A stretch of 56,416 nt of DNA. It comes from Candidatus Iainarchaeum sp. (GTDB taxonomy: Archaea > Micrarchaeota > Micrarchaeia > Anstonellales > Bilamarchaeaceae). The notes beneath the pieces are model-generated. The model was given only the letters and a program-made list of their open reading frames with translations, made no database searches and was not told where the DNA came from. A program made the translations under genes and the position numbers. This document shows positions 20,384-40,711 of the stretch, piece after piece. Within the stretch, counting starts at the first letter, position 1, and each line of letters opens with the position of its first letter. The DNA lies in NCBI GenBank assembly GCA_028686985.1, contig JAQUBA010000004.1, positions 1 to 56,416 of the forward strand, given 5' to 3'.

Positions 20384-23074
20384 ATGCAGGGTGCGGTGGG
20401 CAGGAGCCTGAACGAGCAGAAGGTCCTCACATATGCGAAAATGGTGGAGAAGAGCGAGGGCTTCTGGAATTCCATCCTTGTTTTCCTTGGCGCCTTGTCC
20501 ATCTTATCCGCGATACCGTTCTATCCGCTTCCTGTTGCATTCGTGGCCGCGCTGGTGTGCGGGGCGGTTGCGTTCAGGGCGCCGCATTTCGGCGTCGCGC
20601 TGGGCGTGCTCCTTGTGCTGCCTGCGCTCGCATACCAGTCTACCATTCTTGCGTGGATAGGATTGCTCCTGTTTGCGCTCGTGCTCTTCGAGATGTTTGA
20701 CAACTGGGGAGTGATTGCGCTGCTGGAGGTGGTGTGCCTCGCGCCCTTTGCGGCTTATCCATTTGCGATGTTCGCCGGTTTCATTTATCTGCTTATGGCG
20801 TGGGGAAGCCTGCATTTCGGCTCAAGGAAAAGTGTGATAATATCCGTGCCCGCCGTCCTGCTGATATTGCTATTGTCCTCGCTGTGGCTCGTGCAAAACG
20901 ATGCATACCTGCCGGTCACGGCGGGGCTTTACGAACCTGGGCTGCAGTCGCTCATGGTTTCCAAGCCCGCGATGGGCATGGGCGATTTCGCGGGGGCGGT
21001 GGGGCCCGCGCTGGCGAACGCGTTCAACCTCGCTGGCGCGCGGGACATATTCCCGGCGATGGGAAAGATATGGGACAACCTGGTGCGGCTCCTGTTCATG
21101 GACTTCGGGCTCTTCCAGATAGCGGCTTGGGCGCTGGCGCTGTATGCCGTGGGATGGCTGCCCGCACAGCTGAAGGGAAAATGGACGCAGGCGATGTCTG
21201 CGGCGGCGCTGCTGATTGTGCCGATTCTGTATTTTGTTATGAGCATGGTGATGAGGTTCCCGTTCAACCCGATGATGCTGTTCTATGTGCTCGCGTCCAT
21301 CCTTGTGCTTGCCGTCCTTGATTTTGTTGGAGTTAAGATTTCCAAGGAGAAGATGATCAGGGCAAAGGAAAAATTGAAGGGCTTTGGAAAGCTCGGCGTG
21401 CAGGACATGAGATTGGGCGCGGGGGAGCAGGGGCTCGGCGACGTGGGCGGATATGAGGATGTGAAAAAGGAATTGAAGGATTCAATCATAACCCCGCTGC
21501 AGGAAAGGGAGCTGGCTGATGCATACGGGCTGAAGCCGCCTTCGGGCATACTTTTGTTCGGGCCGCCCGGAACTGGAAAGACGATGCTGATGAGGGCGTT
21601 CTCCAAGGAGCTGGGGTACGGGTTTTATTACGTGAAAACGTCCGAGATACTGAGCAAGTGGGTGGGCGAGAGCGAGAAGAACGTGAGCGAGATTTTTGCG
21701 ACCGCACGGAAGAGCGCGCCCGCGATAATATTCTTTGATGAACTGGACGCGATAGGTAAGAAGAGGGGCGAGGGCGGCATGGATGAGGTCGGGCCGCGCG
21801 TGCTCAGCACCCTGCTGCAGGAAATAGACGGGTACAAGGACGATAAAAAACCCGTGATTGTCGTTGGCGCCACGAACGTGCCGAACAAGCTGGACCCGGC
21901 GCTCATGAGGCCTGGAAGATTTGATAAGATAATCTATATGCACCTTCCGGATTTGGAGGCGAGGAAGGCGATTTTCAGGGTTCATCTGTCCAGGATACCC
22001 ACTGCGCCGGACGTAGATGTGAATGCGCTCGCTAAGAAGACGGACAGGTATTCGGGCGCGGACATAAAGAACGTGGTGACCGAGGCTCTGAACGCGGCTG
22101 CGCAGAAGGCGAAGGAGGCGAAGAAAATAATCCCCGTGGGGATGGCGGACCTGCTGAATGTGCTGAATTACACGAAGCCGAGCACCACGTTCTCACAGCT
22201 GGAGGATTACGAGGAGTTCAAAACTGACTTTGAGCGCTCCATCGCGAAGGAGGCGAAGCCGGGCAAGGAAGAGAAGAAAAGAATAGGGTGGAAGGACGTC
22301 GCGGATTTGGAGGACGTGAAGGGCGCGTTCAGGGAGGCGATAGAGCTTCCGCTCCTGCATCCGGAGCTGATGGAGAAGTACGGGGTGAAGGCGGCGGGGG
22401 GAATGCTCATGTTCGGGCCGCCCGGGTGCGGGAAGACGCTCGTGGTGAAGGCGGCGGCGAACGAGATGGACGTCACCATGCTCACGGTGAGCGGGGCGCA
22501 GCTGATGAAGAAGGGGTACGGCCACGCGGTGAATGTGATAAAGGAGACGTTCAACCGTGCGAGGGAAAACACGCCCGCGCTTATTTTCGTGGATGAGATA
22601 GAGACGATTGCGCCCTCAAGGGAGATGGGGAGGGTGGATGTCGTGGGGCAATTTTTGACCGAAATGGACGGGCTGAAGGAATTGAAAGGGGTGGTTGTGG
22701 TCGGCGCTACGAACAAGCCGTCCATGCTTGACCCGGCGATACTGCGGCCCGGAAGGTTTGACAAGATATTCTACGTACATCCGCCGGATGCGAAGGGGAG
22801 GGAGCAGCTGTTCGCGATACATTTCGGGGAATTCGCAAAGGGATTGGATTTGGCGAAGCTTGCCCGGCTCTCCGAGGGGTTCTCCGGCGCGGACATAGCG
22901 GCGCTCGCGCAGGAGGCGAAGATGCAGATGGTGAGGGACAGGATTGCGGGAAGGGAGCCGCGCCCCACTACGGACGAGGTGCTGAGGATGCTATCCATGA
23001 GGAGGCCCTCAATCACTGCGCAGGCGCTGATGGAATACGAGAATTTCCTCCGCGAATACGGGGAGAGGCATTAG
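20384..23074 (+). CDS. Polytopic-membrane tandem AAA+ ATPase (CDC48-like D1-D2 with an N-terminal multi-TM domain)
   Basis: 896 aa. The first ~320 aa are almost entirely hydrophobic helices (about 9 by eye). Two AAA modules follow. Walker A is GPPGTGKT and GPPGCGKT. Walker B is IIFFDELD and LIFVDEIE. There is no protease domain. Confidence 0.85.
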   Translation: MQGAVGRSLNEQKVLTYAKMVEKSEGFWNSILVFLGALSILSAIPFYPLPVAFVAALVCGAVAFRAPHFGVALGVLLVLPALAYQSTILAWIGLLLFALVLFEMFDNWGVIALLEVVCLAPFAAYPFAMFAGFIYLLMAWGSLHFGSRKSVIISVPAVLLILLLSSLWLVQNDAYLPVTAGLYEPGLQSLMVSKPAMGMGDFAGAVGPALANAFNLAGARDIFPAMGKIWDNLVRLLFMDFGLFQIAAWALALYAVGWLPAQLKGKWTQAMSAAALLIVPILYFVMSMVMRFPFNPMMLFYVLASILVLAVLDFVGVKISKEKMIRAKEKLKGFGKLGVQDMRLGAGEQGLGDVGGYEDVKKELKDSIITPLQERELADAYGLKPPSGILLFGPPGTGKTMLMRAFSKELGYGFYYVKTSEILSKWVGESEKNVSEIFATARKSAPAIIFFDELDAIGKKRGEGGMDEVGPRVLSTLLQEIDGYKDDKKPVIVVGATNVPNKLDPALMRPGRFDKIIYMHLPDLEARKAIFRVHLSRIPTAPDVDVNALAKKTDRYSGADIKNVVTEALNAAAQKAKEAKKIIPVGMADLLNVLNYTKPSTTFSQLEDYEEFKTDFERSIAKEAKPGKEEKKRIGWKDVADLEDVKGAFREAIELPLLHPELMEKYGVKAAGGMLMFGPPGCGKTLVVKAAANEMDVTMLTVSGAQLMKKGYGHAVNVIKETFNRARENTPALIFVDEIETIAPSREMGRVDVVGQFLTEMDGLKELKGVVVVGATNKPSMLDPAILRPGRFDKIFYVHPPDAKGREQLFAIHFGEFAKGLDLAKLARLSEGFSGADIAALAQEAKMQMVRDRIAGREPRPTTDEVLRMLSMRRPSITAQALMEYENFLREYGERH

Positions 23075-23082
23075 ATTGCTAA

Positions 23083-23652
23083 TCAGATCTGCTTAACCGC
23101 GATTACGCCCGCCCGCGTCTTGTAGAATTTGTAGCCGGCCTTCATCAGGACTTTTTCGGTTTTCGTGCCCCTCTGGGACACCACTTCATCAACGTTGCCG
23201 TCCGGGTTCATGGGGGTGGTGAGCGTGACCGCGAACTGGAACTCTCTCGCGCGCCCTTCCATCTCGCGGTGGTCCACGAGGAGTTCGCGCAGCCCCTTCC
23301 CCTCATATGCGAGCAGGACCGCGTCGTCCTCAAGGAAAATCGCATTCGTGTAGCCGGCCTCAAGCTGGAGGTTGGTGGGGTTATAGGCCGTGCCCCATGC
23401 GAGCCCCACGGCGACGAGCATCCTGCCCACGTATGCGCCGTAGCTCATGTTCCTCCTGAGCACCTCGCGCACCTCCTCTTCCGTGACCGCGAAGAGGCAC
23501 TTCCTCATTATGTGGGTGACCTCCTCCGCGTCCTCGGGCTTGAGGCGCTTTATCTCCGCCTCCTCTATGTCTATGGGTGAGCGCACGCGCATCTTGGGGG
23601 ACGCCTTCTCCTCCGTGTTCTCCTCTATTATGGCGTTCTTGAAGTCGCTCAT
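23083..23652 (-). CDS. Hypothetical cytosolic protein, weakly GNAT-like
   Basis: The track start is TTG, so I use the ATG at 23652 (MSDFKNAIIEE). The segment AVLLAYEGKGLRELLVDHREMEGRAREF resembles the acetyl-CoA loop of GNATs, but only weakly. Confidence 0.35.
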   Translation of the reverse strand: MSDFKNAIIEENTEEKASPKMRVRSPIDIEEAEIKRLKPEDAEEVTHIMRKCLFAVTEEEVREVLRRNMSYGAYVGRMLVAVGLAWGTAYNPTNLQLEAGYTNAIFLEDDAVLLAYEGKGLRELLVDHREMEGRAREFQFAVTLTTPMNPDGNVDEVVSQRGTKTEKVLMKAGYKFYKTRAGVIAVKQI

Positions 23653-23710
23653 CAATTGGATAATGGGAGGAGGAGTTTTAATCTATTGCGATGGATGGGG
23701 GCCGGGCACA

Positions 23711-24046
23711 TTACATGAACCTTGTCCCGCATACCGGGCATCTGGTATAAAGGGTGTCCATCTCATACCCGCAGATGGGGCACCTCCACACCTGCTTCTT
23801 CGCCCGCGCAATCTCCGCCTCAAAATCATAGTCCCCGTTCACGCATTTCTTCGCGTCCAGCTCGTTCAGCTCGCCACACTTGGGGCACTTCTTCCTGAAC
23901 ATGGACTTTATGCGCACCCCGCAGGACGGGCAGCGCTCCATGTCCAGCGTCACCTTCGCCCCGCATGAGGGGCACTTGAAATCCTTGTCCGCGAGCGTGG
24001 ATTTCTTCTTGCCCAGGCCCTCTTTTATCGCGTCTAGAAGTCCCAT
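23711..24046 (-). CDS. Triple zinc-ribbon protein
   Basis: 111 aa. Paired CxxC knuckles: CPSCG..CPSCG, CPKCG..KKC, CPICG..CPVCG. Overlaps the upstream gene's 3' end by 13 nt. Confidence 0.7.
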   Translation of the reverse strand: MGLLDAIKEGLGKKKSTLADKDFKCPSCGAKVTLDMERCPSCGVRIKSMFRKKCPKCGELNELDAKKCVNGDYDFEAEIARAKKQVWRCPICGYEMDTLYTRCPVCGTRFM

Positions 24047-25050
24047 TTATGCACCATCATGGCAAGCGGGAGCAGCGCCGCAAGGACGAACGCGGATGGG
24101 CACATGGGCTTGGAGCCCGTGCCTGAAGTGCCAGCCCCGGGGGTTCCGGTGCCGGCTTCGCCGCCCGTGGTTGTGGGCACATCGCCAGGTTCTACATTCT
24201 CTACCTGCGCCCCACCAAGGCACTGCGCGGACATCGCGCTGTTCAGGGCATCAAGGCTCATCCCATAGTTGCCGCCGCGGACCGCCGTCTTGAGCGCGGC
24301 TATCTGCGTCGCGACGTTCCCGGAGTTGCACGCGCGCGAGTTCGCGAGGTCTTCCGCGCTCTTTATCTCCGACAGCGCAGCCGTGCATGCGGATGCGTTG
24401 CCGTTTATGGACCGTACGGTGTTTATCGCGCCTTCCACCAGCATCCTGGCGCCATCCACCCTGCACTCCTTCAGCAGGGCCTCTGACTCCGCCTCCACCC
24501 CTACGAGGGAATCGCGGTCCGCCTTGAGCTTGCAGCATGTGGAGCCGTCGCTGCTGCACAGGGAGAGCGGCTGCACGTCCGCGTATTCGTCAAGGAACAC
24601 CTCGGTCTTGTTCTCCACTATGAGCTCCTTGGCGGTCGGGAAGTGGTTGAGGGGCACATCAAACACGGCTTCGTAGGTGGTTGAGCCCCGGGTCATGGTT
24701 ACTCTTGCGATTTCAAAGGAATCCACGCCCTCGCCCCTGCCGCCGAGGTAAACCGGGATGCGGACGTTGCAGGTCTTGCCGAACTCAAGGACCGGGCACT
24801 CCGCGGCCTGAACCCACTGGTCGTTCGTGAAATTCCTGAAATAGAAATATGCGGTCGTGCGCTCCCCGAACGGGTTCTCCACCCATATCCCCATGGTGAT
24901 GTGCTCCGGCCCGTTTCCGCCGGAGTCGCAGTTGTGCACGAGCACGTTGGACGAAACGGGCTGGGAGTCTATGGTGCTCAGCTCCACCTCAAGCTCCGCG
25001 GAAAAAACAAACCCTGAAACCAGCAGCAACGCCAATAGAACGGCTTTCAT
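24034..25050 (-). CDS. Secreted Cys-containing surface protein with G/T/S linker and C-terminal TM anchor
   Basis: I use the internal ATG at 25050 (MKAVLLALLLVSGFVFSAELEV, a signal peptide). The C-terminus is GGEAGTGTPGAGTSGTGSKPMCPSAFVLAALLPLAMMVHKWDF. No family recognised. Confidence 0.65.
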   Translation of the reverse strand: MKAVLLALLLVSGFVFSAELEVELSTIDSQPVSSNVLVHNCDSGGNGPEHITMGIWVENPFGERTTAYFYFRNFTNDQWVQAAECPVLEFGKTCNVRIPVYLGGRGEGVDSFEIARVTMTRGSTTYEAVFDVPLNHFPTAKELIVENKTEVFLDEYADVQPLSLCSSDGSTCCKLKADRDSLVGVEAESEALLKECRVDGARMLVEGAINTVRSINGNASACTAALSEIKSAEDLANSRACNSGNVATQIAALKTAVRGGNYGMSLDALNSAMSAQCLGGAQVENVEPGDVPTTTGGEAGTGTPGAGTSGTGSKPMCPSAFVLAALLPLAMMVHKWDF

Positions 25051-25071: not shown

Positions 25072-25079
25072 TTTATATA
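25072..25079. promoter_or_regulatory. Palindromic TATA box shared by divergent operons
   Basis: TTTATATA is centred at 25075.5, exactly midway between the minus-strand ATG (25050) and the plus-strand ATG (25101). It lies 22 nt from each start. Confidence 0.6.
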
Positions 25080-25100
25080 CTTTACAGAAGAGTGGAAAAG

Positions 25101-26780
25101 ATGCGGGGTTGGCTGTTTGCGTTGGTTCTGCTAGGGCTAGCCTTTGCTGCGGGGACGGGCGTGGAGATTCCCGACCTGAACCCGCAGGCAAACCCCGCGT
25201 TCATCGGCGCGATAATCCTGCTCTCCGTGAGTTTTGTCGCGGTGGCCTATGCCGTGTCCACCGGCCTGCAGAACCCGTCCGCCATCGCCTGGAGCAAGGA
25301 CCAGCTGAGGGAGGTGGTTGCGGGGGTAATCCTCGTGGTGATGGTGATCGGGGCTTACGCGACGATAAACGCGCTGCTTGTGCCTTTCCTCACACCGGTT
25401 ACTGAAGACGTGGACCGTGAGGTCAGCCATGATGTCGTTACCGAGACCGGGATATGGAATGTAACCTACCATGTTGCGCATGGGTGCTGCGCGGCGGGGT
25501 GCGGCCCCGGGGAATGCATTACCGGGGACGGGAGGGACGATTTTGAAGGGGAGGCCCCGGGCCCATTTACAATAAGTGCCGGGATGTGCGGGGAATTCCC
25601 GGACCCGGCGGCCGCCCCGTGCGTGAACGTCCTGGTTACCGCGAACGAGGAGCAGCCCTGCGAATACGGGGGGAGCCTCTATTCCAGCACGTGCCATATA
25701 TCGGAAAGGGCGCCCGTGGCGCAGCCGGACGGAACCTACCATACCACGGATGTGGAGATAACCGTGGACAAGGACGTGGTGACGCGCACGGAAACGGTGA
25801 CCGAGACGGTCACGGAAACCATCAGCCACCCGCCGATGACCGACAACGCCATGCTGACGCTGGGCGAGGAGGCGCTGCTTTCCGTCATCAACACGACGAA
25901 AAGGATTTACGAGAGGGTGGGGGAGGCGTATTTCAGCGTGGCCCTATACCAGGGGATGTCGGTGAGCACGACGCGGCTGAACCTTTATTACGTTACGTGG
26001 GGGGAGAGCAGCGCCCCCTTCGCTGGGATAAGCCATGTGATGGTTGCCCTCAACCAGGGGGCGCAGCAGCTCACCTTCCAGCTCCTCAGCTTCCGGGTGG
26101 TGCTGATATTCCTTTCATACATCAATTCCGTGGTTCCATCCTTCATCCTTCCGATCGGCATGGCGTTCCGGGTGTTCCCGTTCACCAAGAAAATAGGCAA
26201 CACCCTCATAGCGTTGTCCCTGGGCGCCCTGTTCATGTTCCCGGCATCCCTCGTGCTGGTGAAGGAAATCCATGGTTCCATCAACTCGGAAAAAGTCAAT
26301 GAGGCGCTCGGAAAGTCCTTCCTGCTTGAATACGAGGGGGTGGGCTCGGAGACCTACGGGCCGCTCATGGCTTTCTGCAAAGAGCCGGTTTTGAGGATAA
26401 TCCTGCTGCCGGGGGAAATACCGCTCAGCATAATCTGGGCAAGCATAGTCTGCGCATTCTCCACGCTAGCCTATGCGGCATGCTGGATAGCCCAGTGGAT
26501 GTTCTTCCTGCAGATACTGTGGCCCCTGCTCAATTTCGCGGTGCAGAACATATTCTCCATATTTGTGCTCCCGTTCGCAAACCAGATGGAGCCGCAGATG
26601 ATATATGACGACCTGGTGCAGCCCGTGCAGATGATACTCCTGCCCGCGATAGCAGAGACGGCCATGTTCGCCATAATCGCCTCCCTCATAATCGCGATAG
26701 TGACCATCACCGGAACCAAGGCCATCGCAAGCGCGATAGGCGGGGATTACATCCTCTACGGGATAACGAGGCTGGTATGA
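25101..26780 (+). CDS. Paralog 1 (P1) of an unassigned polytopic membrane protein family, with a Cys-rich loop
   Basis: I use the ATG at 25101 (MRGWLFALVLLGLAFAAG, a signal peptide). It has the family motifs VAVAYAVSTGLQNPSAIAWSKDQLREV, LPIGMAFRVFPFTKKIGNTLIALSLGALFMFP and the C-terminus AIGGDYILYGITRLV. A Cys-rich insert (HGCCAAGCGPGEC...) and a TETVTETVTET repeat lie between TM2 and the core. Confidence 0.75.
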   Translation: MRGWLFALVLLGLAFAAGTGVEIPDLNPQANPAFIGAIILLSVSFVAVAYAVSTGLQNPSAIAWSKDQLREVVAGVILVVMVIGAYATINALLVPFLTPVTEDVDREVSHDVVTETGIWNVTYHVAHGCCAAGCGPGECITGDGRDDFEGEAPGPFTISAGMCGEFPDPAAAPCVNVLVTANEEQPCEYGGSLYSSTCHISERAPVAQPDGTYHTTDVEITVDKDVVTRTETVTETVTETISHPPMTDNAMLTLGEEALLSVINTTKRIYERVGEAYFSVALYQGMSVSTTRLNLYYVTWGESSAPFAGISHVMVALNQGAQQLTFQLLSFRVVLIFLSYINSVVPSFILPIGMAFRVFPFTKKIGNTLIALSLGALFMFPASLVLVKEIHGSINSEKVNEALGKSFLLEYEGVGSETYGPLMAFCKEPVLRIILLPGEIPLSIIWASIVCAFSTLAYAACWIAQWMFFLQILWPLLNFAVQNIFSIFVLPFANQMEPQMIYDDLVQPVQMILLPAIAETAMFAIIASLIIAIVTITGTKAIASAIGGDYILYGITRLV

Positions 26781-27679
26781 TGAAGGCAGTGCCCATGGCC
26801 CTCATTTTCGTTTCCGCCGCCTTCGCGGCATGCTCCCTTGACAGCAGCCAGTTCTCGGAGGCGATGCCGATAATAGGCGCCGCAATCATGCTGAGCGTGG
26901 CGGTCGTAGCGGTGGCATATGCCGCGGGCAGCATGCTCAGGGACGCGCACCTGCTCGTATTCAGCAAGGATGAGCTTTTCCACCTCCTCATATCCGTCCT
27001 GCTCGTGGTCGCGATACAGTCCATATTCACGGGCTCATGCCTTATCACGTCGGATGTGCTGGACGGGAATGACCCGCTCACCTACTCCGTTTCATACATG
27101 CGGGGGCTGCGGATAGAAGGTTCCTCCGTCCTCACCGGGCTGATGAGGAGCTCCATAGACCAGAAATATGCGGCCGCGGAAACGGGCGGATACTTCTTCC
27201 CTTTCGTGGGCGGCGAGATATTCATGGAGGAATCGTTCAAGAACGCATATTCGCGGCACCTTGACATCGCCTTTGATTTTGTGATGATGGGCTTCGTGAG
27301 CTCGGGCCTGCAGTATGAGGGGATGAAGATGGTCGGGTTCGTCTCGCTTGGCGTGCTGCTTCCCTTTGGGCTCATATTGAGGATGCTCCCCAAGCTGAGG
27401 GATTCCGGGAACGTGGTGATCGCCCTCGCTTTTGCCATATACATCTTCATCCCCTTTTCGTATGCTGCCATCGGCTCGGTGGCGCGCGACATGCCGGTCG
27501 GATGCGATTACAAGTACGATGGCGGGGACGACCCCGTGTTCGGGCCATGCGATGGGGTGACCGGCTTCGGAACCATCGCGAACTACATAATGCAGACCAT
27601 ATTCCTGCCGAACCTTGCGCTGGTGGTGTTCGCCACGGCGGCAGGAGCGCTGGTGAAGATTGCGAAGGTGATACCATGA
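26777..27679 (+). CDS. Paralog 2 (P2), minimal member
   Basis: 300 aa. ATGA overlap with P1. Signal or lipobox-like MALIFVSAAFAAC. Motifs VAVAYAAGSMLRDAHLLVFSKDELFHLL and LLPFGLILRMLPKLRDSGNVVIALAFAIYIFIP. Confidence 0.75.
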   Translation: MMKAVPMALIFVSAAFAACSLDSSQFSEAMPIIGAAIMLSVAVVAVAYAAGSMLRDAHLLVFSKDELFHLLISVLLVVAIQSIFTGSCLITSDVLDGNDPLTYSVSYMRGLRIEGSSVLTGLMRSSIDQKYAAAETGGYFFPFVGGEIFMEESFKNAYSRHLDIAFDFVMMGFVSSGLQYEGMKMVGFVSLGVLLPFGLILRMLPKLRDSGNVVIALAFAIYIFIPFSYAAIGSVARDMPVGCDYKYDGGDDPVFGPCDGVTGFGTIANYIMQTIFLPNLALVVFATAAGALVKIAKVIP

Positions 27680-29745
27680 GGCACTGCGTACTGCTCATAA
27701 TGCTAGCTATTCTTGTTCCGGCAATCCTGGCACAGGAGGGCTACGTGGGGAGCACCCTGGCCGGGATAGAATCCGCGGGCCCGGAATCCAGCACGCTTGC
27801 GCAGGTCGCGGCGAACTGGAGGGTCCTGAGCATACTTGTGGTCATGCTCTCCGTGGGGCTGGTCGCAATCGCCTATGCCATAGCCAATGCATTCAGCCTT
27901 CCGGACCTGAAGGCATGGGCGGACGTGGAGAAGGGGGAGCTCTTCACCTCCGTGATAATAGTGATATCGCTGGTCGGGATACTCGTGTTTGTGGAAGGGG
28001 CGGGCATGGCCCTCGCGGAGGAATCGTCATTCAGGGGAATGTGCCGTGAGGCGTTCCTGGGAGGGGATTTCTGCCCAGCAGTGATAGCCAGGAGCTACCT
28101 TGACAGCTACGCGGGTGCCGCCGAAGACCTCTACAAGGATTTAAGCGTGAGGAAGATAGAGAAGGCCCAGGATGCGTACAGGGGCCACAGCATAACTTCC
28201 GTATTCCTCCTTTGGGAAATCCCGCTGTACCTGGGCACATCCTTCAGGGAGTGGGACGTGGGGTACAATACCTATGATGTGGAGATGTACGACCAGGAGC
28301 TCCAGATGCTCGGCACGATGCTTTCCACCATATACGCGCAGAGATACATAATAAATGCCCTTTCCCTGAGGATAGCGCCCCTCTGCCTCGTGCTGGGGAT
28401 AGTGCTGCGCTCCTTTTTCCTCACCCGCAAGCTCGGGGGGCTGCTGATGGCTTTCGGGGTGGGATTCCTCCTAGTGTTCCCTGCTTCCTATGCAATCGCA
28501 TACCTCACGCTGCAGAGCACGATATACGGGAACCCGACCGTAAATGCGGGGCCTGTGGTTGCGTGCCCGGAGGCGTGCACCCTGCCCCCAATCATCGCTG
28601 CGAAAACCGGAATCACAGCCACGGGGGGGGAGAGCGTGGGGCTGACTGCGAAAGAGCTGGAGGATGCGATAAGGGCCTCCACGGACTATGCGGAGGATCC
28701 GGCAGGGGTTGAGAGTTCGATAAGCGCACTGAAGAACGGAACCATCCCATCCTATTCCTATGATGACGGGGACGGGCATTATACCATAAGTTCCTGCATA
28801 ACCCCTGCACAGCTGGAGGCCTGCCCGATGCACTGCAGGCAGATCCCGTACCCGTTCCAGCTTCCCGAATGCCTGAAAGCGACATGCACCTCTCCTGTCC
28901 CGACCACCGGGCGCATAGCGCCGGCGTGCGTAAGGGTGATATACTTCAACGAAACTGTGAGGGACGACCCGCTCCTGCAAAAATACATTGAGGATTTTGA
29001 CATATGCCCGGAGAAGTGCAGGACAAAAATACCGAAGTGGGGCAGGATGTGGGACTACTATTATTCCCCTGGAATGGAAACCGCCGGCCGCCAGGTCAAT
29101 TTTGAGGTGTTTGAGGAGTGCCCGCCGCAGTGCAGGTGGATAAGCACCAGCAACGAGACCGACTCCGAATGCTCGGACCTGTGCAAGAATGTGCACAAGC
29201 AGGTTCTTGACTGGGGCTGCCACGGGGCAGACTGCTGCTCCCCTGCACATGGATTCAGCGGAGGATGGAGGGTTGAAGGCGATTACGAAGGATACGGCGA
29301 GTGGTGCGGGAAGGACTATTACCAGTTCCCGCTGGACCCGGAAGCGGAATGGGCGAAGGGCGATGACACGCCGGACGACCCGACGGATGACTTTTATGAG
29401 GGGACCACCTACATTATACCGGATGCCGCATTCACGGAGGATTGCGAGCCGTGCCTCTATGTGTTTGACAAGGGCCTTGCCTACAAGCCGCAGGTGATTT
29501 CGGACTGCGTAACCCTGTGCGGGGCGGCGCTTTCCACGGCCAGGACTTATGAGGACCCGGCTACAATGACCAACAAGATGGACGGGCTGGTGGGGCCGAC
29601 CGAGATGAAATCCGTCGCAAAGCTGATAATACCCGCATTCGTACTTCCTCTGTTCGGGCTTGCGGTAACGCTGATGTTCATACAGTCTTTGTCGCCGATG
29701 CTAGGCGGGGATATTGACATCCCGGGAATGATGAGGATGCTATGA
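27676..29745 (+). CDS. Paralog 3 (P3), with a ~340-aa Cys-rich ectodomain insertion
   Basis: I use the ATG at 27676 (ATGA overlap with P2; MRHCVLLIMLAILVPAILAQ) rather than the track start at 27502. Motifs VAIAYAIANAFSLPDLKAWADVEKGELF and LVLGIVLRSFFLTRKLGGLLMAFGVGFLLVFP. C-terminus LGGDIDIPGMMRML. The insert carries CPEAC, CPMHC, CPEKC and CPPQC. Confidence 0.75.
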   Translation: MRHCVLLIMLAILVPAILAQEGYVGSTLAGIESAGPESSTLAQVAANWRVLSILVVMLSVGLVAIAYAIANAFSLPDLKAWADVEKGELFTSVIIVISLVGILVFVEGAGMALAEESSFRGMCREAFLGGDFCPAVIARSYLDSYAGAAEDLYKDLSVRKIEKAQDAYRGHSITSVFLLWEIPLYLGTSFREWDVGYNTYDVEMYDQELQMLGTMLSTIYAQRYIINALSLRIAPLCLVLGIVLRSFFLTRKLGGLLMAFGVGFLLVFPASYAIAYLTLQSTIYGNPTVNAGPVVACPEACTLPPIIAAKTGITATGGESVGLTAKELEDAIRASTDYAEDPAGVESSISALKNGTIPSYSYDDGDGHYTISSCITPAQLEACPMHCRQIPYPFQLPECLKATCTSPVPTTGRIAPACVRVIYFNETVRDDPLLQKYIEDFDICPEKCRTKIPKWGRMWDYYYSPGMETAGRQVNFEVFEECPPQCRWISTSNETDSECSDLCKNVHKQVLDWGCHGADCCSPAHGFSGGWRVEGDYEGYGEWCGKDYYQFPLDPEAEWAKGDDTPDDPTDDFYEGTTYIIPDAAFTEDCEPCLYVFDKGLAYKPQVISDCVTLCGAALSTARTYEDPATMTNKMDGLVGPTEMKSVAKLIIPAFVLPLFGLAVTLMFIQSLSPMLGGDIDIPGMMRML

Positions 29746-30794
29746 TGAAGAAGTTCCTGCTGGCGCTCCTGCTCGTTTCCCTCTCGTTTGCGGCAGAGGC
29801 GGAAGCATGGCAGGTCTATTCCATAACCGCGGTGCTTGCGGCCTTTAGCGTGCTCGTGATATTCTACATGCTCACCTACGCCGTGGACAGCCCGCAGGCG
29901 AGGGGGATGGCGGTAAGCGAGATGTTCCAGGTGCTCGTTACGCTCGTGATAATCGCGGTCTTCGTCGGGGCCGAGGGATACAGCCGTGACGTGCTTGCGC
30001 CGGCATTCGGAGAGGATTTCGGGGCTCCGGAGGGCTATACCCACCTTGATTTTGCGGTGAACATAACCAAATCAATGATCAATTACCAGTGGGGCCAGAT
30101 AACCAAGCTGGACGGGCAGGTCGTGAGGCCGCTTGCGAACCTCGCAACGGTCACGGGCAACTGCGGCTTCCTGGGCTTCAGCTTCACCTTCAATGGCTGC
30201 GCGGGGATAGCCGTCCCGTCCGGCTCGATGGCGCTTGCGATGAGGGTGCTGGTCGCATGCATACTGAGCCTCAGTTCCCAGCTGGTGCTCCTCATGCTCG
30301 CGAACGACTTCTTCTTCCCGGTGCTCCTGCCCATGGGCCTGTTCCTCCGCTGCTTCCACGTCACGAGGGGGACGGGGGGCTTCCTCATCGCGGTTGCGGT
30401 CGCCTTCTATTTCGTGTATCCGCTAGGGGTGATAATAACCAAGGGGATGCTGGACCAGGCCGAGGCGGGGCTGGTGGCGGCCGCGGGGGCGGACAACTAC
30501 GACCCCGTGATACCGTCAATTGATGCGCCGAATGCCGACCTGATGAGCGTGGAATCATTGGAATGGATTGTGCCGGGGGACTGCGACCCCTTTGACATGA
30601 GCTATGAGCCCACAAAGACGATGATTGGGAAGGTCATGAATCCGGACCTCATGGACAGGATGATTTTCCATTTCTTCATAGGGGGATTGTTCACGAGTGC
30701 ATTGAACCTTCTGATAGCGCTTTCAAGCGTAAGGGAGCTGAGCAGGATATTCGGGACTGAGGTTGACGTCTCGGCTCTGGCGAGGGTGTCCTAG
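29742..30794 (+). CDS. Paralog 4 (P4)
   Basis: 350 aa. ATGA overlap with P3. Signal peptide MMKKFLLALLLVSLSFAAEA. Motifs LLPMGLFLRCFHVTRGTGGFLIAVAVAFYFVYP and C-terminus RELSRIFGTEVDVSALARVS. Confidence 0.75.
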   Translation: MMKKFLLALLLVSLSFAAEAEAWQVYSITAVLAAFSVLVIFYMLTYAVDSPQARGMAVSEMFQVLVTLVIIAVFVGAEGYSRDVLAPAFGEDFGAPEGYTHLDFAVNITKSMINYQWGQITKLDGQVVRPLANLATVTGNCGFLGFSFTFNGCAGIAVPSGSMALAMRVLVACILSLSSQLVLLMLANDFFFPVLLPMGLFLRCFHVTRGTGGFLIAVAVAFYFVYPLGVIITKGMLDQAEAGLVAAAGADNYDPVIPSIDAPNADLMSVESLEWIVPGDCDPFDMSYEPTKTMIGKVMNPDLMDRMIFHFFIGGLFTSALNLLIALSSVRELSRIFGTEVDVSALARVS

Positions 30795-30802
30795 GTGTTC
30801 TG

Positions 30803-31873
30803 ATGGCGATTGAGCTTGCGGCGATGTACCCGCTTTCCGTTTTTGCGCTGGGCATCACCATGATTGTAATCGGGCTGGCGTATGCGCTCTCCCAGCTGCT
30901 GCAGAACCCCGCGTTCCTTGTCTGGTGCAAGACGGAATTTTTTGAGGTGTTCGTTTCGCTTGGGATAGTGCTGGTGACGCTGTTCATGATTGGGTTCATA
31001 ACCAACGACGTGAAATACGGGGCGTTCGTGTCCCTGCTCCCGTCCGGCATTGCGGCCCCTTCGTATTCAAATCCGGAGATAGGGGACGGCGACACTGTGT
31101 TCAATGCATCCTCAAAATACCTCACAAACGTCGCATACTTCGTGCACACGAGCATGGAGGGCTCCAGGGCGGCGTACGGCGCGCTGGAGGTGCACATGAG
31201 GTACAGGAGGATGCCATGCCTCCCGGGGATATTGATGTGCATATTCGGCCCCAGCGGATTCAATTTCGCGCCGGAGAGCGGGGGGGGCGCATGGATACAG
31301 GCCATGAACATGACCATGTATACGGACACTGCGGCATACATCACCGTGCTGGTGCAGCTCGCATTCCTCTCCTTCATCCAAAGCGGCGGGTTCCTGCTCT
31401 TCCTCCCTCTTGCGATAGTGTTCCGCTCGCTCCCGTTCATGCGGCAACTTGGAGGGGGGCTGATGGCGATGTGCATCGCATTGTTCATAATCTACCCGTC
31501 GCTGCTGTTCCTGGAGTCGTTCTTCTGGGACCCCTCCGCGATGGTTGGCGCTTCGGAGATTGAGTCGGTGGAAAGCGCGATAAGCGGGATGGCGGGGGCA
31601 GGGGGGGCCGGGGTCGGGATGTTCAGCAACAGCCTTCCGGATGATTTGGACGGGAATGTGTGGAACGAAGGCACATCCCTGAACGACTTTGTCGGGTACA
31701 GGGAGGTTGTGGACAATGCCGTCAGGCCGCTGCTGAAAATAGCCGCGGTCTCGTTCCTGAGCTCCACGTTCCTCTTTGCGCTGAACATAATCGCGGTTTC
31801 CGCATCCGCCAGGGAGTTGGGAAGGCTTTTCGGGCAGGAAGTTGACCTGAGCAGGCTCATGCACATAGTGTAG
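30803..31873 (+). CDS. Paralog 5 (P5)
   Basis: 356 aa. AGGTG Shine-Dalgarno-like sequence in the 8-nt gap. Motifs IGLAYALSQLLQNPAFLVWCKTEFFEVF and FLPLAIVFRSLPFMRQLGGGLMAMCIALFIIYP. C-terminus RELGRLFGQEVDLSRLMHIV. Confidence 0.75.
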   Translation: MAIELAAMYPLSVFALGITMIVIGLAYALSQLLQNPAFLVWCKTEFFEVFVSLGIVLVTLFMIGFITNDVKYGAFVSLLPSGIAAPSYSNPEIGDGDTVFNASSKYLTNVAYFVHTSMEGSRAAYGALEVHMRYRRMPCLPGILMCIFGPSGFNFAPESGGGAWIQAMNMTMYTDTAAYITVLVQLAFLSFIQSGGFLLFLPLAIVFRSLPFMRQLGGGLMAMCIALFIIYPSLLFLESFFWDPSAMVGASEIESVESAISGMAGAGGAGVGMFSNSLPDDLDGNVWNEGTSLNDFVGYREVVDNAVRPLLKIAAVSFLSSTFLFALNIIAVSASARELGRLFGQEVDLSRLMHIV

Positions 31874-31878
31874 GTGAT

Positions 31879-32919
31879 ATGGTGGCTGGTGAAGAAGGGG
31901 GGCTTTTTGACGTATCCAGCCTCCTGAACACGCCGTTCCTTTACGGATGGGGGGACGGGGGCTGGTGGTTTGTGAATTGCGTCCTTGCAATACTCATTAC
32001 CGGCCTGATAATGGGCATGTTCTACGCGATAGGCTATGCGATAAACTCTGCGAACCTGAAAAGGTATTCCATGTCCGAGTTCCTCCAGCTTGCGGCAACC
32101 GCGGTGCTGGTGATTGGGCTGGTGGGGATGCTGAGCATGGGGAGCACGGTGCTCGGGACGATGTTCGGGGGGACGATCCAGTGCAAGGGGAGCCCGATAA
32201 GCAACCACATTGATGCGGCAATGTGCAGGACCACGGAGAAGCTGGGGTATTTCAATGCGGCATACGAGCAGATAAAGGAGGACAATGCGGGGCTGGAATG
32301 GCTTTATTACTGGCAGATGACGCTGCTCGGGGTGCCTTTCTTCCAGGGGATGTGGATAGACGACGTTTACAAGCCGGTGGAAACCGGCCATTACATAGCG
32401 ATGAAGATAGTGTCCGTAATGCTGTCGCTGAACGCGCAGTATTTCCTGCTCAAGTACATAAAGGCGAACATGCTCGCCACCTTCCTTCCCCTGGGCATAA
32501 TACTCCGCACGCTGCACTTCACGCGGGGCATAGGCGGATTCTTCATCGCCCTGGCGGTAAGCCTGTATTTTGTGTATCCCGGGGCGCTTTTCCTCATGGA
32601 TGCGACCTACGCCCCGCCCAGCGACGTGCCGACCCCGGATTACACGAGGGAAGGGGTATGCGACCTGCCGATGTTCAGCGGGTTTTCCATAGGCGCAATC
32701 CAGCCGGCTTCGGATGCGGGAAGGGGGGCTATGAACAGTGCGGCCCGCGCGGCCATCAGCACCGGCAATATGGCCAACTTCGTGACTCGTGTATTCGTAG
32801 GGCTTTTCTTTGACAACATGGTGGCTTTTGCGATGGCGCTCACTGTGATGAGGTACGCAACCAGCCTCCTTGGCGGGGAAGCAGGGGTATTCCTGCAGAT
32901 GATGGCAAGGTGGGTATGA
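31879..32919 (+). CDS. Paralog 6 (P6)
   Basis: 346 aa. AGGTGA in the 5-nt gap. Motifs MFYAIGYAINSANLKRYSMSEFLQL and FLPLGIILRTLHFTRGIGGFFIALAVSLYFVYP. C-terminus LLGGEAGVFLQMMARWV. Confidence 0.75.
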   Translation: MVAGEEGGLFDVSSLLNTPFLYGWGDGGWWFVNCVLAILITGLIMGMFYAIGYAINSANLKRYSMSEFLQLAATAVLVIGLVGMLSMGSTVLGTMFGGTIQCKGSPISNHIDAAMCRTTEKLGYFNAAYEQIKEDNAGLEWLYYWQMTLLGVPFFQGMWIDDVYKPVETGHYIAMKIVSVMLSLNAQYFLLKYIKANMLATFLPLGIILRTLHFTRGIGGFFIALAVSLYFVYPGALFLMDATYAPPSDVPTPDYTREGVCDLPMFSGFSIGAIQPASDAGRGAMNSAARAAISTGNMANFVTRVFVGLFFDNMVAFAMALTVMRYATSLLGGEAGVFLQMMARWV

Positions 32920-35900
32920 TGGACAGGGACATATTGGTCGTTTTGGCGCTTCTCTTCGTTTTTGCAGGATGCACGATGCCCGAATACCGCCAGTGCTGCC
33001 TTTACGCGAATGCCGAGGCGGGGCAGTGCGTGCTCAAGAATGCGACCGCCTACGACACCAACTCGTGCGACATGGAGAACCTCACCTGCAACGTGACGCA
33101 GGGCGACAGGGAGATGACATTCCCCATCTGCCCGAGAGTGGAGGAGGTGGAGTGCAATGTTTCGTGCGCTGGGATGTTCTGCGCAAAATACGAATACGAC
33201 CCAAGGCCGCCCGCCTCGCCCGATTTCATGATTGAGGCGATACAGACCGAGGAGATGAGCAGGGAGGCCGGCATCGGGCTCGGGGAGGACACGGCAAAGG
33301 GCCTCTACGGCACGGAATGCAGGATAGAGAACATCACCCCGACGTTCCTTAACCTCATGAGGAACGTGCAGGGCGGCGTGCGCCTGAACATATTCAGGTT
33401 CGGGGTGGGGGGCTCCTTTGAGGAATTTGACGAGGCATACATGTACTACCCGCTCACCGACTACGCATGCGAAAACAACCAGTTCGGGCATGTGGACCGG
33501 TATGTGAACTACATGATACCGAATTTGATGGGCGGCGGGGAACTGTGCAGCGTGGGGGGCGTGCTCACCCCCACCGGGGAGATACCGCAGTATTTCTGCA
33601 ACGTGGATGATTCCATCCGCACCTTCACCTACCAGGACTGCGCGACAAGGTGCGCGCTGAAGGCATACGGGGATGCCCCGGTGGTCCAGCCCAACAACGC
33701 CTACCCCACGGAAAGGAACGGGATGGAGAGCGGGAACCCGTTTGCATACGGGGTTTCGCCAAGCATGCACGGTAGCGACCCTTTCAGGGACCTGCAATAC
33801 AAATCGTCCATAGATGTCCCGCCGGCGTTTGACGACGAGTATCCTGCGGGGTACACATACTACGGAAGCGAATTCGCGAACAACAGGTACCTGAGCAACG
33901 AGAATGGCGGCTGGGAGAGCATCATGCTTGAGCGCGGCCCCCTCTCCGTGGATGTGACCACCGGCTTCATGGATTACTATTATGGGGAGGAAACGGACCA
34001 GATAACTGTGGAGGGCGGCAACCTAGTGGAGGAGATGACCACAGCCGAAAGGGACCCGCACATGCTGTATTCGTACCTGCTCTCCCGCCATTCCGTCTAT
34101 TCAAAGCAGTTCAAGGAAGGGCATTACACCCCGGAGGGGGAATGGAGCCCGGGCGCGGAATTTGAGTGCACGCTTGAAGGCGGGGAGTGCGTCTCGGGGT
34201 TCTGCAATACATTTGATTATACCAGGGGCGCATGCGAGAAGCTTGACTTTGAAACCGGCGAAACGGAGGAGGTGCCCTGCGACTGCTGGGAGGAATACGG
34301 GGACATAGTGTGCGCCGGGCAGAAATATTATGGAACGGATGCGTGGGACAACGGGGAGGACATAACCGCGGCCAAGCCGCTGGGGACGCTCGTGGAGTGG
34401 GATGAGAGCTTCCTTGGGTTTAGTATCGGGTGGTACAGGAGCTTCCCTTCCACTGGGAAGATGTTCAGCTACGACCCTGGCGGGGTATTCCTGGACGAGC
34501 CGGAGGGGGAAGAGGTGCAGGACCTAGTGATATTGCTTGGGGGCAGGGAGGACCCGGACTACCAGCTATTTGAATATTCGGACGAGCTGGATGACATGAA
34601 TGAGACGCTCACCATCCCGCAGGTGCTCTCCAGGGCGAAGTGGAGCGGGTGCGGCGCGTATTCCGATTGCGGAAAGTTCTACACGACCTTTGTGGACGCG
34701 TGCATGCCGGATTTACCGGACCCGGCATACTCCGAATCCAATTTCATGGTCTGCTACAGCAGGAAAACGAACGGGCACTACGGGCAGGGGATAGACCGGG
34801 CAACCGGGGAGGTCTACGACCTGCCCAGCCCGTCCATCTGCGAGGCGCTTTATGATGCAGACCAGGATGGACACAGCAAAAATGATTACGGGGGCGTGGA
34901 CAAGAACAGCGACACCGACCATGACGTGTATTGCTATGCGAGGGAGTCCGACGGGACGTGCGTCGGGTATGCGAGGGCGGCGCTGGTCCTCACGGCCCGC
35001 GAAATAACCTATACAAACGCGGACGGGGAGGAGGTGATAGGCAAGGCATTCGGGAACTGCATACTGGAGGAGGACAAGCTCAAGGTGGTGACGCCCGGCT
35101 ATTGCGAGCATTGCAGCTTCCTCACCATGGCGAAGGAGAATGTGGTAGAACTACCGGAAGATGATGAAGACCCGGGATACCAGAGGGCAGGCAGCGGGAA
35201 GCTCAACACGAACAAGTACTGCCCCTCCCTTGAGATAAGCACCATATACAATAATGAGCCGTCCGCCATCGTGCTTGCGCCCGGCACCGCGAAAGCAGAT
35301 TGGGAATCCGGGGGGACGCATAGCTCGGGAGGGGATGAGGGGAACCCCTACAGGTACAGCGAATGCACGATGCCTGACGGGACCGAAGCCGGAAAAAAGG
35401 CGGCATGGCCGGATTACCTCCCGAACGCATATTACCTGAAGAAAAAAATAGACGGATACCTGCAGAGGAACGTGATGCCGGTCATATTCGCGGATGACGA
35501 TGGGCTCTACCGGGGACTATACCCCGGAACGGACGACCCCGCCCTTTTTGTGGAAACGGACGGGGATTCCGCCTCAAGCCCCCTGCTGAAGAAGCTGTAT
35601 GACGAGAACCCGCTCGGCTTCGCGGAAAACGCGGACGAGGGCGGGGACGAGTACACGACACAGGGGACCTTCCTTGCGGATTCCGTGATGAACCTCGGCG
35701 CCGGGATAATCGTGGTGAGGAACTTCAATTCAGACGACATGGAAGCCGCCGGGGGCTCGCCCATCATAATCACAGAAACCGGGGAAGCCAGGTCGCTCAG
35801 GAAGATAGATTACACGCTTTACGCCCGCGAGAGGGCGGTCCGGCTCATGTGCCCGAACTGCATGGTCGCGGTCGGGATAGGCTATGGTGAAGAGGGCTCC

Positions 35901-40100: not shown

Positions 40101-40711
40101 CCGTGGCAACGATATACAACAGCACGCCTGCAGAAATATGGGTTGGCCTATCGGGCGCTGCCGCGACGCAGCTTCTTGTTGATGGGAATGCCGGTGCAAT
40201 CACTGCGGCGCGGACCTACGGAGAACATTATGCCGCGGCCGGCGAGGCCGGAGCGAATCTGGAGGCGGCGCCTGTGGGGCCGCGCCAAGCCATATACGAC
40301 CCCGCAATCAGGGAACCGAGAATCTCGGCATTTGACGCGATGGCCGGCGCCGGCTCCATAGACGTAAATCATTATATGGGCTCGCCCGTGATGCAACAGC
40401 AGACCGCCGCGGTGATGGATGCGGTTGCGGCGAGCACCGCGCGTTTCGCCGCGAGTTCGTTATACCAGGATTATTTCAGCAGCCACACCGAAACCGTGGA
40501 CCAGTGGATGGAGCAGGCGAGGGAGCACCAGAGGCGGCTGGACGAGGCGGGCGCGGTCACCACCGAAACCGGGGCGGTTGTGCTGCCGGAGGAGGGGGGC
40601 GGCGGGCCTCCCGGAGGTGGCTGGGGCGCCAGCGAATACAGCCAAGCGGCACGGAGGGCATACGAGGCAAGGGGCAGGGGGCAGGTCCCCGGTGAGGAAA
40701 TACCCAGGTAA
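37127..40711 (+). CDS. Giant (~1190 aa) bitopic protein: Cys-rich ectodomain, TM, Q/S/G-rich linker, large Ala/Gly/Gln-rich domain
   Basis: Signal peptide MRPAALLLLVMLLSLGSASDG. The N-terminal ~210 aa are Cys-rich. TM FVFCFPILVLFGLLGAAMYA is followed by an Arg-rich flank. Low-complexity KQSSQQSSSQQQGGGGQVQTTQG...QAQQPTQAPS. The remaining ~850 aa contain only two Cys. No Walker motifs seen. Confidence 0.7.
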   Translation: MLEHPKKFMRPAALLLLVMLLSLGSASDGIGGGPDVGGGISPEATAGAGIEIPVYPDISRPIPVPEACAECPPPGLEPPLMLPFLDDVGKDASIYVAATKEGRRVPLEGATVFIHVYKSAGDFVYSCRAYTDSSGGAVLSYAPYEEACKNGCTIKFVFCCSGVVEQSCMLPVCLGSSITSYSDYVSCPGYPDPWPVNATVDGVAYPAAPAVAETQIPPSAEAAAFALDFVFCFPILVLFGLLGAAMYASGRDPFAIFSFYTPRYTRGAERPMGARGFTFDTRTIMGAAQSIAMAGIAGARKAEKQSSQQSSSQQQGGGGQVQTTQGATGALGEPRQAQQPTQAPSAASVAPQGARAPGGGLSAVDLRAAAPQTGGLPIQLLANAIFKMFTGDMSGWSRFAQLFTSSSIYGQFEGIGAQEFAAQMASTLLIYSNLPFGWLVNSFTYSPHLQTLAGARNLANIGKLSDMLYGWTDEEGHFHRGWQEDVSGNIHISWRQDGEVQERVFARGSNELVTFIQNNVTDSYYSAQQFVQVAMADSQQGLAASSTEAIEGNLRGAEGRMGIVDLTHRLQGFTPEQVQAWTTERGFQGAFSGAVGVLMSGRNADGTETTMQQKIEAFRTAAAAFSVFSGTEGFADRYSSLSATQEFRFLERMMTVTGTAESPGLLREIMAAEGGMNGGVLTSASLIALCMGSTDNATAQAAGSSAMGGLRGIITSGEGRPNVAFSEGAEGVHERNLLSMVLGSSIASLEPASESYQQQSYMLAALSSEYRLEAQAVAEGLAPDAGNRGWAEGSLDISAGTRDWAEQFQGNAATSIALQEMEPMMDAMTRYAFFNDPVAREVLAAADPVPYEELQRRQREGELSSSDQYLLYAYQCGRQDQERGREVGAAAYGLSGEAGAAEGMLTQQQRLDAARTIVESTPIEADVSGWIAAGNQEARAAAVRSEEGLGTVQRYAFGLYFSDNEADKQRGMELLGAVGAVYQGTGPERDAAVATIYNSTPAEIWVGLSGAAATQLLVDGNAGAITAARTYGEHYAAAGEAGANLEAAPVGPRQAIYDPAIREPRISAFDAMAGAGSIDVNHYMGSPVMQQQTAAVMDAVAASTARFAASSLYQDYFSSHTETVDQWMEQAREHQRRLDEAGAVTTETGAVVLPEEGGGGPPGGGWGASEYSQAARRAYEARGRGQVPGEEIPR

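Follow-up and report, generated by a model that had tools for sequence, protein, structure and literature searches.

We analyzed a 56,416-nucleotide (nt) stretch of DNA from Candidatus Iainarchaeum sp. (GenBank assembly GCA_028686985.1, contig JAQUBA010000004.1, positions 1 to 56,416 of the forward strand), referred to here as the window, and found six tandem genes, P1 to P6, whose products are paralogs of one another. They constitute a previously undescribed membrane protein family that has thus far been met only in Micrarchaeota (DPANN archaea). From their conservation and gene order, we consider it somewhat more probable than the contrary that the six proteins join obligately into a hetero-oligomer serving as the membrane core of a new envelope and cell-surface apparatus.

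Six paralogs of an undescribed membrane protein family

An earlier note on this DNA, made from the sequence by itself, had placed six tandem genes at 25101-32919; its coordinates are exact, and all six genes lie on the + strand. P1 (25101..26780) encodes a protein of 559 amino acids (aa) with a signal peptide and the C-terminal tail ...GGDYILYGITRLV. P2 (26777..27679, 300 aa) is the minimal member, with a lipobox-like signal peptide (FAAC), almost no ectodomain and no C-terminal tail motif. The product of P3 (27676..29745, 689 aa, tail LGGDIDIPGMMRML) contains 26 Cys and carries a Cys-rich insert of ~350 aa in the predicted outer loop between transmembrane helices (TM) 4 and 5. P4 (29742..30794, 350 aa, tail FGTEVDVSALARVS) belongs to the best-conserved subfamily. 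P5 (30803..31873, 356 aa, tail FGQEVDLSRLMHIV) has a signal peptide in no genome, and its short acidic N-terminal tail runs directly into TM1. P6 (31879..32919, 346 aa, tail LGGEAGVFLQMMARWV) lacks a signal peptide in this lineage, and its N-terminal tail of 28 aa contains no Lys or Arg. The P1-P2, P2-P3 and P3-P4 junctions are 4-nt ATGA overlaps, and gaps of 8 nt and 5 nt separate P4 from P5 and P5 from P6, respectively; to judge from these junctions, the six genes are translationally coupled. Signal peptides had been assigned to P1-P4 and denied to P5 and P6. This holds for the first five proteins, but the absence in P6 is a property of this lineage only, and the P6 orthologs of another subclade have a lipobox-type signal peptide.

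Two kinds of comparison identify the six genes as true paralogs. All-versus-all BLASTP joins all six products through one common core segment, which scores 74 bits between P4 and P6 and 30-46 bits between other pairs. We also built profile hidden Markov models (HMMs) from P4 orthologs only or from P1 orthologs only and ran them against 476 stop-to-stop, six-frame open reading frame (ORF) fragments (Z = 1e6). Each of these single-subfamily HMMs retrieved the six paralogs and no other ORF among the 476, with E <= 1e-7 for every paralog using the P1-ortholog HMM and E-values of 2e-29 to 5e-3 using the P4-ortholog HMM.

The hand alignment in the earlier note had found three shared motifs: an N-terminal helical hairpin, a core motif and a C-terminal tail. 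MAFFT recovers all of them in register, and formal alignment therefore supports the motifs. Conservation was counted over 76 aligned sequences from the six subfamilies, taken from the window and 12 other loci, using P4 numbering. In the core motif, R203, G212 and P227 never vary (76/76). Other motif positions are Y42 (70/76), R209 (69/76), A217 (66/76), G338 in the tail (63/76) and E60 in the first turn (58/76). P2 had been noted to lack the tail, and this is true in every genome examined. The paralogy and the motif sharing are far beyond chance, confirming the original observation.

We then asked how far the family extends. An 18-sequence profile was run with HMMER against 1.84 billion cluster representatives (50%-identity clusters) and matched 3,123 clusters at E <= 1e-3, of which 2,588 remain at E <= 1e-10; members range from 300 to 1,469 aa. 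Twenty of the best 150 of the 3,123 clusters were looked up; nine of these were named, and all nine are from Micrarchaeota, including Ca. Anstonella and Ca. Gugararchaeum. The homologs from a word-indexed search are all labelled Micrarchaeota or Micrarchaeia. A pattern scan of GTDB species representatives, built on the alignment of P4 orthologs and able to detect only these, found 16 loci, of which 15 are labelled Micrarchaeota or Micrarchaeia and one is labelled only 'archaeon'.

The earlier proposal of a new membrane protein family is borne out by searches of known families and structures. Neither the six paralogs nor any of 113 diverse relatives reached a Pfam or NCBIfam threshold, and Pfam gave merely scattered weak matches to the relatives. 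PHROGs and PADLOC returned zero matches for the family, so we found no sign of phage or anti-phage defence membership. The family HMM matched no PDB sequence at E <= 10, and structure comparison, described below, gave no significant hits. The locus is not described in surveys of archaeal 'dark matter' (PMC5898192, PMC6393860) or in the available portions of the literature on cultivated Micrarchaeota (PMC5498576, PMC8784108, PMC8975820, PMC11329633, PMC12892359).

Predicted topology and ordered retention

The AlphaFold2 model of P4, made with 24 sequences, has a predicted local distance difference test score (pLDDT) of 79 and a predicted template modeling score (pTM) of 0.72 and consists of five long helices and a beta-hairpin. 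Following the signal-peptide helix, helices 20-48 and 51-93 form a TM1-TM2 hairpin in which TM2 extends outward. Next come a helix (101-135), the beta-hairpin (139-150) and a 50-residue helix (154-203) that represents TM3. A five-residue turn leads into TM4 (209-239), after which a low-confidence loop, TM5 (301-336) and a short terminal helix complete the chain. P1 is the most divergent paralog, and its model, made with 18 different sequences (pLDDT 66.6), repeats this order of elements; its core runs from TM1-TM2 through the ectodomain, TM3-TM4 and extra helices to TM5 and the tail. Model confidence is low in its ectodomain insert (100-247). Hydropathy agrees with the AlphaFold2 topology.

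Based on these models, the proteins are predicted to have an outer N-terminus, five TMs and an inner C-terminus. The TM1-TM2 hairpin would be followed by a variable ectodomain in which prolonged TM helices form the base and the beta-hairpin forms the cap. TM3 and TM4 are predicted to form a second hairpin around a tight cytoplasmic turn that contains the invariant R...R..G, and a second variable outer loop, TM5 and a short, subfamily-specific cytoplasmic tail would complete the layout. Since a cleaved signal peptide leaves the N-terminus outside, the NP..K.E turn, the R203-x5-R209-x2-G212 turn and the C-terminal tail would all be cytoplasmic, with the two variable loops outside. Several features fit this topology. 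C141, C153 and C281, conserved in P4 orthologs, are in outer loops, as are the large insertions of P1 and P3. The CARDB and beta-helix N-terminal fusions of other lineages join the outer end of TM1, and the signal-less N-terminal tails of P5 and P6 are free of Lys and Arg. Such fusions are seen in P0064, P0070, P0128 and the Ca. Anstonella locus L021 (10001-15432), where long N-terminal CARDB or right-handed beta-helix (NosD-like) extensions precede the five-TM module.

Column conservation over the 76 sequences peaks in the second cytoplasmic loop (0.64). The TM helices, first loop and tail are intermediate (0.40-0.50), and the outer loops have the lowest values (0.20-0.28). Polar or helix-breaking residues are conserved inside the TM helices at Y42, Q180, P197/G199 and P227. 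Neither model had a Foldseek match at E <= 0.001, P4 being compared with PDB and BFVD and P1 with PDB; the best PDB E-values for the two models are 0.07-0.09, with TM-scores below 0.25.

The six genes are also retained as an ordered set. Twelve comparison loci span the array (L001, L003, L007, L010, L012, L013, L015-L018, L020 and L021), and another, L009, is cut within it. By HMM, every array-spanning locus has exactly six members, whose best hits are one-to-one to P1-P6 in the same order. In the main set of loci, L021 apart, orthologs score 150-450 bits versus 35-85 bits for the next-best paralog. L021, from Ca. Anstonella stagnisolia, has the same six in the same order at only 25-30% identity to the window proteins. 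Its members are 410, 321, 1126, 933, 876 and 358 aa long, and three contain large extra domains; the P4 and P5 orthologs are those of 933 and 876 aa.

Each subfamily also keeps its own tail phylum-wide: GGEY.LYG.SR in P1, LGGD.D.PGMMR in P3, FG.EVD.SALARIS in P4, LG.EVDLSRL.QI in P5 and LGG....F..M..R in P6, with none ever in P2. The one-to-one orthology, fixed order and subfamily tails imply that the sixfold duplication is older than the divergence of these lineages and that no copy has been lost or swapped. This pattern is what would be expected for non-redundant subunits. In L001 (14411-15447, JGI/NCBI assembly), the P4 ortholog is broken into genes of 289 and 65 aa. The ortholog is intact (345 aa) in L002 (6146-7183), a Logan assembly with the same P1 protein, and the split probably stems from a frameshift in assembly or sequencing rather than marking a pseudogene.

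The wider locus

The earlier note had treated the six genes as the unit. They stand as an array, but the unit is larger: the genes for B1, B2 and a PadR-family regulator are co-operonic with P1-P6, a three-gene operon diverges from P1, and an AAA+ ATPase gene is usually adjacent. B1 (32910..37118, +) overlaps the end of P6 and encodes an acidic protein of 1402 aa with 53 Cys, a signal peptide ending in FAGC and no TM beyond it; from these features, B1 is a secreted protein and possibly lipid-anchored. It evolves fast (29-47% identity between genomes), and nothing in Pfam, NCBIfam or PDB matches it. Lipobox-like signal-peptide ends of the form [LF]-[AS]-[GAT]-C recur at this locus. They are found in B1, in its ortholog in L021 and in P2 of most genomes, and the same end is present in the P2, P3 and P6 orthologs of one subclade (L007-L017). 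This sequence feature suggests N-terminal lipid anchoring of multi-pass membrane proteins.

B2 (37127..40711, +; 1194 aa) is a single-pass protein with a signal peptide, a Cys/Pro-rich ectodomain of ~190 aa, a TM at ~219-250, an Arg-rich juxtamembrane stretch and a predicted cytoplasmic domain of ~940 aa. This last part is rich in A, G and Q and contains 0.6% Lys and 6.4% Arg. Past the membrane-proximal region, residues ~300-350 form a low-complexity linker rich in Q, S and G (…QSSQQSSSQQQGGGGQVQTTQ…). Only the N-terminal third of B2 aligns between genomes, and B2 has no Pfam, NCBIfam or PDB match. Self-BLAST found no internal repeats in either B1 or B2. The two genes lie downstream of P6 in every locus that reaches far enough, including L021. 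Neither carries an S-layer domain in Pfam or NCBIfam (PF05123, TIGR01564, TIGR01567), and we reject them as candidate S-layer proteins. The S-layer protein known from Micrarchaeota is distinct from both and does carry PF05123 (bioRxiv 10.1101/2021.04.28.441871).

The PadR-family winged-helix regulator (40717..41025, +; 102 aa; Pfam PF03551, E = 1.7e-13) follows B2. Because it begins 5 nt past the B2 stop codon, it is probably part of the P1-P6 operon and its last gene; the comparison loci end inside B2, before the position of PadR. From P1 through PadR, consecutive start and stop codons overlap or are separated by 5-10 nt.

On the other side of P1, the first gene of the divergent operon encodes S338 (24034..25050, -; 338 aa), a type I membrane protein. 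It starts with a signal peptide, its ectodomain is rich in Cys (11 Cys), and its TM is C-terminal. BLASTP places S338 next to P1 in 9 of 12 loci. It is followed by genes for a cytoplasmic multi-zinc-ribbon protein (23711..24046, -; 111 aa; Pfam Zn_ribbon_3 and DZR), found in the same position in L001 and L003, and for g190 (23083..23655, -). The latter is a cytoplasmic protein of 190 aa with 48-90% identity between genomes and no family match; PDB sequences gave it no match or noise only. The divergent starts, at 25050 (-) and 25101 (+), are separated by a 50-nt spacer that holds a single A/T-rich, TATA-like box, TATTTATATA (25072..25081), ~20-26 nt from each start. In L001, L003, L007, L010, L012, L013, L015-L018 and L020, too, a TATA-like box precedes the (corrected) P1 start by ~20 nt, and the divergent start codon (CAT) follows ~22-25 nt past the box in most comparison loci. 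One box with two starts suggests a shared bidirectional promoter that yields leaderless mRNAs both ways, a reading that leans on the known geometry of archaeal promoters.

The adjacent ATPase gene (20384..23074, +) encodes a membrane-anchored, Cdc48-like AAA+ protein in which a polytopic membrane domain of ~330 aa precedes two AAA+ modules. PF00004 matches twice (E = 2e-80), and matches to p97/VAT reach E = 1e-120 to 1e-130. Both modules have intact Walker A and B motifs, and the D1 pore loop, KWVG, is aromatic. The protein matches neither CDC48_N nor CDC48_2, the double-psi barrel N domain being replaced by the polytopic membrane domain (residues 1-330). A canonical, soluble CDC48 with CDC48_N and CDC48_2 is encoded separately at 3786-5942 (-). 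Of 12 loci, 10 have the membrane-anchored ATPase gene beside the six paralogs, and both orientations occur; in L003 it is on the opposite strand relative to the window and co-directional with the g190 operon. Adjacency in either orientation argues for selection on proximity. The gene is absent within 10 kb of the Ca. Anstonella locus.

Curated families contain no detectable relatives of ten of the 13 locus genes, namely the six paralogs, B1, B2, S338 and g190; searches of Pfam, NCBIfam, PHROGs and PADLOC with these ten gave nothing above threshold. Elsewhere in the window, the gene for the signal recognition particle (SRP) RNA (1908-2160, -) is best matched by the Rfam model Bacteria_large_SRP (65.8 bits, full 256-nt match) and not by an archaeal SRP model. 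A 520-aa protein with PQQ-like (BamB-type) beta-propeller repeats, encoded at 13073-14635 (+) beside L11 and GatD/GatE, is probably another surface protein. As for the source of the window, P4 is 100% identical to a GenBank protein of a metagenome-assembled genome (MAG) labelled 'Candidatus ainarchaeum sp.' (P0019). The FtsZ, Spt5, MscS and AAA+ proteins of the window are 86-98% identical to those of a 1.03-Mb contig labelled Candidatus Micrarchaeia archaeon (L001/L008), and we therefore take the window to derive from a near relative of that genome. These Iainarchaeum-type and Micrarchaeia labels disagree, and the source MAG may carry an inconsistent taxonomic label.

A candidate hetero-oligomeric core and its alternatives

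The earlier note had raised the possibility of a hetero-oligomer, and an assembly of this kind is the best available reading of its observation. We infer it from the single copy of each paralog, the fixed order, the persistence of both down to 25-30% identity, the separate tails and the coupled genes, which together strongly suggest it. Each paralog would contribute one copy to a defined hetero-oligomer in the membrane, which may take the form of a pseudo-hexameric ring. On its outer side, this core would bear fast-evolving, disulfide-rich or adhesin-like ectodomains and hold the giant, lipoprotein-like B1. On the inside, it would offer its conserved loops and tails to the ~940-aa domain of B2, to the Cdc48-like AAA+ ATPase or to both. 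The whole could then serve as an envelope-spanning surface apparatus for contacting other cells or the environment or for exchange with them. A surface role is suggested by the fast-evolving ectodomains, the CARDB and beta-helix domains of some relatives and the host-contact lifestyle of cultivated Micrarchaeota (PMC5498576, PMC8784108, PMC11329633).

A more detailed version of this proposal is possible but doubtful. Here the six paralogs would occupy fixed positions in a heterohexamer, and their tails would dock onto, or be pulled by, the membrane-anchored Cdc48-like unfoldase. This would drive a conformational change or the assembly or deployment of B1 and the paralog ectodomains, making the locus a Micrarchaeota-specific apparatus for host attachment or exchange. 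Cdc48-type ATPases are usually hexameric, and the six paralogs match that number; ring and tail docking would both be by analogy.

A number of points weigh against the hetero-oligomeric core. The assembly and its stoichiometry are read here from sequences and gene order, and ordered co-retention could also mean that the six proteins have separate, individually essential functions. Since the ATPase gene is not adjacent in Ca. Anstonella, its link to the array is not universal. The cytoplasmic domain of B2 is poorly conserved, which would be odd for a core partner. Among the 76 sequences there is no invariant acidic, His or Cys residue that would hint at catalysis, and nothing points to a transported substrate. 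The role in cell contact is read from surface-type domains, fast-evolving ectodomains and the symbiotic lifestyle of cultivated Micrarchaeota, and the organism from which the window derives may not be host-dependent. Finally, only the best 150 of the 3,123 clusters could be inspected, and a restriction of the family to Micrarchaeota is therefore not proven.

Unlikely, though the best of the alternatives to a hetero-oligomeric core, is a generic set of membrane anchors, in which each paralog separately anchors or presents a different surface domain within ordinary envelope or S-layer architecture and clustering reflects only co-regulation, with no obligate complex. The Micrarchaeota S-layer does require anchoring (bioRxiv 10.1101/2021.04.28.441871), and the ectodomains vary widely among paralogs and lineages, with CARDB, beta-helix and Cys-rich inserts, fast-evolving parts and total lengths of 300-1,469 aa. 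For independent anchors, however, one would predict variable copy number and order, and instead there are six, one-to-one and in fixed order, even at 25-30% identity. The best-conserved parts are the cytoplasmic loops and subfamily tails, which an anchor does not need, and in P2 there is hardly any ectodomain that could be presented. Nor does either B1 or B2 have an S-layer domain, unlike the known S-layer protein with PF05123.

It is quite improbable that P1-P6 make up a channel or transporter for lipids, nucleotides or metabolites that a reduced genome cannot supply, with the AAA+ protein providing energy or only assembly and quality control. The DPANN genomes are metabolically reduced (PMC6349945), and the predicted TM helices of the six proteins add up to ~30 or more (five in each paralog and extra ones in P1) and contain the conserved polar and helix-breaking residues described above. 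The best structural neighbors, which are not significant, are Tweety-homolog (TTYH) proteins with five TMs and helical ectodomains, one entry of which was deposited lipid-bound; their TM-scores, though, are 0.10-0.19. Nor is there similarity to a transporter family. The only such match, to the putative ATP-binding cassette (ABC) exporter family PF16962, is below the cut-off (15.2 versus 29.7 bits), covers 80 residues of TM helix in P4 only and recurs in 1 of 113 relatives, and we reject it. No substrate-binding protein, ABC ATPase or ion-coupling signature was detected, and giant partners such as B1 and B2 are atypical of transporters.

Very improbable, finally, is a diverged module related to the type IV secretion system (T4SS), of the VirB6/TrbL type and perhaps with a VirB2-pilin-like N-terminal hairpin, that would form a T4SS-derived conduit. 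Its attraction begins with topology: VirB6 of A. tumefaciens has an outer N-terminus, five TMs with a large loop after TM2 and an inner C-terminus, and P1-P6 are predicted to be arranged likewise. The NCBIfam model NF045849 (pilin-like conjugal transfer protein) also matches P4 at residues 27-75, below threshold (E = 0.036). PF18895 (T4SS_pilin) is the sole Pfam family to match more than one of 113 members (4/113, best E = 0.005), and a phage 'TrbL' is at rank 2 of the Foldseek search of BFVD with the P4 model (probability 0.90, E = 0.068, TM-score 0.30). Hydrophobic hairpins, though, are prone to spurious weak matches. When we aligned the 113-sequence family profile by hhalign with VirB6 and VirB2 of pTiC58 and with a 30-sequence PF04610 alignment, the probabilities were 0.16-0.18% for VirB6 and PF04610 and 0.2% for VirB2, and this negative result rejects T4SS homology at this sensitivity. 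PDB includes T4SS structures, yet the family HMM matched no PDB chain at E <= 10, and the Foldseek search of PDB placed TrwI/VirB6 (7o3v_F) at rank 42 with E = 1.0. No gene for VirB4, VirD4, the VirB11 ATPase or another T4SS component was found in the 56-kb window or within 10 kb on either side of L001, L003 and L021.

A relationship to the T4SS pilins themselves (VirB2/TrbC-like) was considered and rejected. NF045849 reaches 13.7 bits where the cut-off is 40, and PF18895 has the 4/113 matches given above. The layout differs as well. A pilin of this kind is small and has nothing beyond a signal peptide and a two-helix hairpin, while the members here, of 300-1,469 aa, have three further TMs, and only their N-terminal ~80 aa are pilin-like. 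Viral or mobile-element origin is rejected, with no relative found on IMG/VR viral contigs and the locus lying amid housekeeping genes (FtsZ, Spt5, SHMT, GatDE, L11 and an eRF1/Pelota-like gene).

The molecular basis of envelope building and of cell contact or exploitation in DPANN archaea such as Micrarchaeota is largely unknown, and this phylum-conserved locus of ~20 kb, built on six ordered paralogs, offers a concrete target. Should the hetero-oligomer prove real, it would stand as a rare example among prokaryotes of a membrane complex with six differentiated paralogs and would also represent a membrane protein fold with no solved representative. With 3,123 clusters, the family merits a Pfam entry and can serve as a genomic marker for Micrarchaeota, and the locus lends itself to study with the co-cultures and proteomes already published.

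Several known systems invite comparison. The TTYH proteins resemble the predicted P1-P6 layout in their five TMs, outer N-terminus, inner C-terminus and ectodomain made by extension of TM helices. TTYH entries are the top non-significant PDB hits of Foldseek for P1 and appear for P4 too, with E-values of 0.07-0.5 at the TM-scores given above. They are eukaryotic and homomeric, however, and have no sequence similarity to P1-P6. With VirB6/TrbL (PF04610), the likeness lies in a polytopic layout with a large extracytoplasmic loop and an inner C-terminus, which for P1-P6 is a prediction. Rickettsiales, moreover, have tandem arrays of VirB6 paralogs with large variable extensions, again in a reduced-genome, host-associated organism. 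The two families nevertheless lack profile similarity, and the R..R..G turn and C-terminal tail have no counterpart in the VirB6 alignment.

The neighboring ATPase shares with archaeal Cdc48/VAT its two AAA+ modules, Walker motifs and aromatic D1 pore loop and differs in having the ~330-aa polytopic membrane domain in place of the N domain. Comparable in organization, as an analogy only, are Rpt1-6 of the eukaryotic proteasome and Mcm2-7, heteromeric rings whose paralogs have a fixed order and which pair with or derive from hexameric machines. P1-P6 are membrane proteins and not ATPases, in contrast to both, but each of these systems consists of six diverged, single-copy paralogs. The docking tails of Rpt1-6 likewise recall the P1-P6 members that have their own conserved C-terminal tail, next to a gene for what would be a hexameric AAA+ ATPase.

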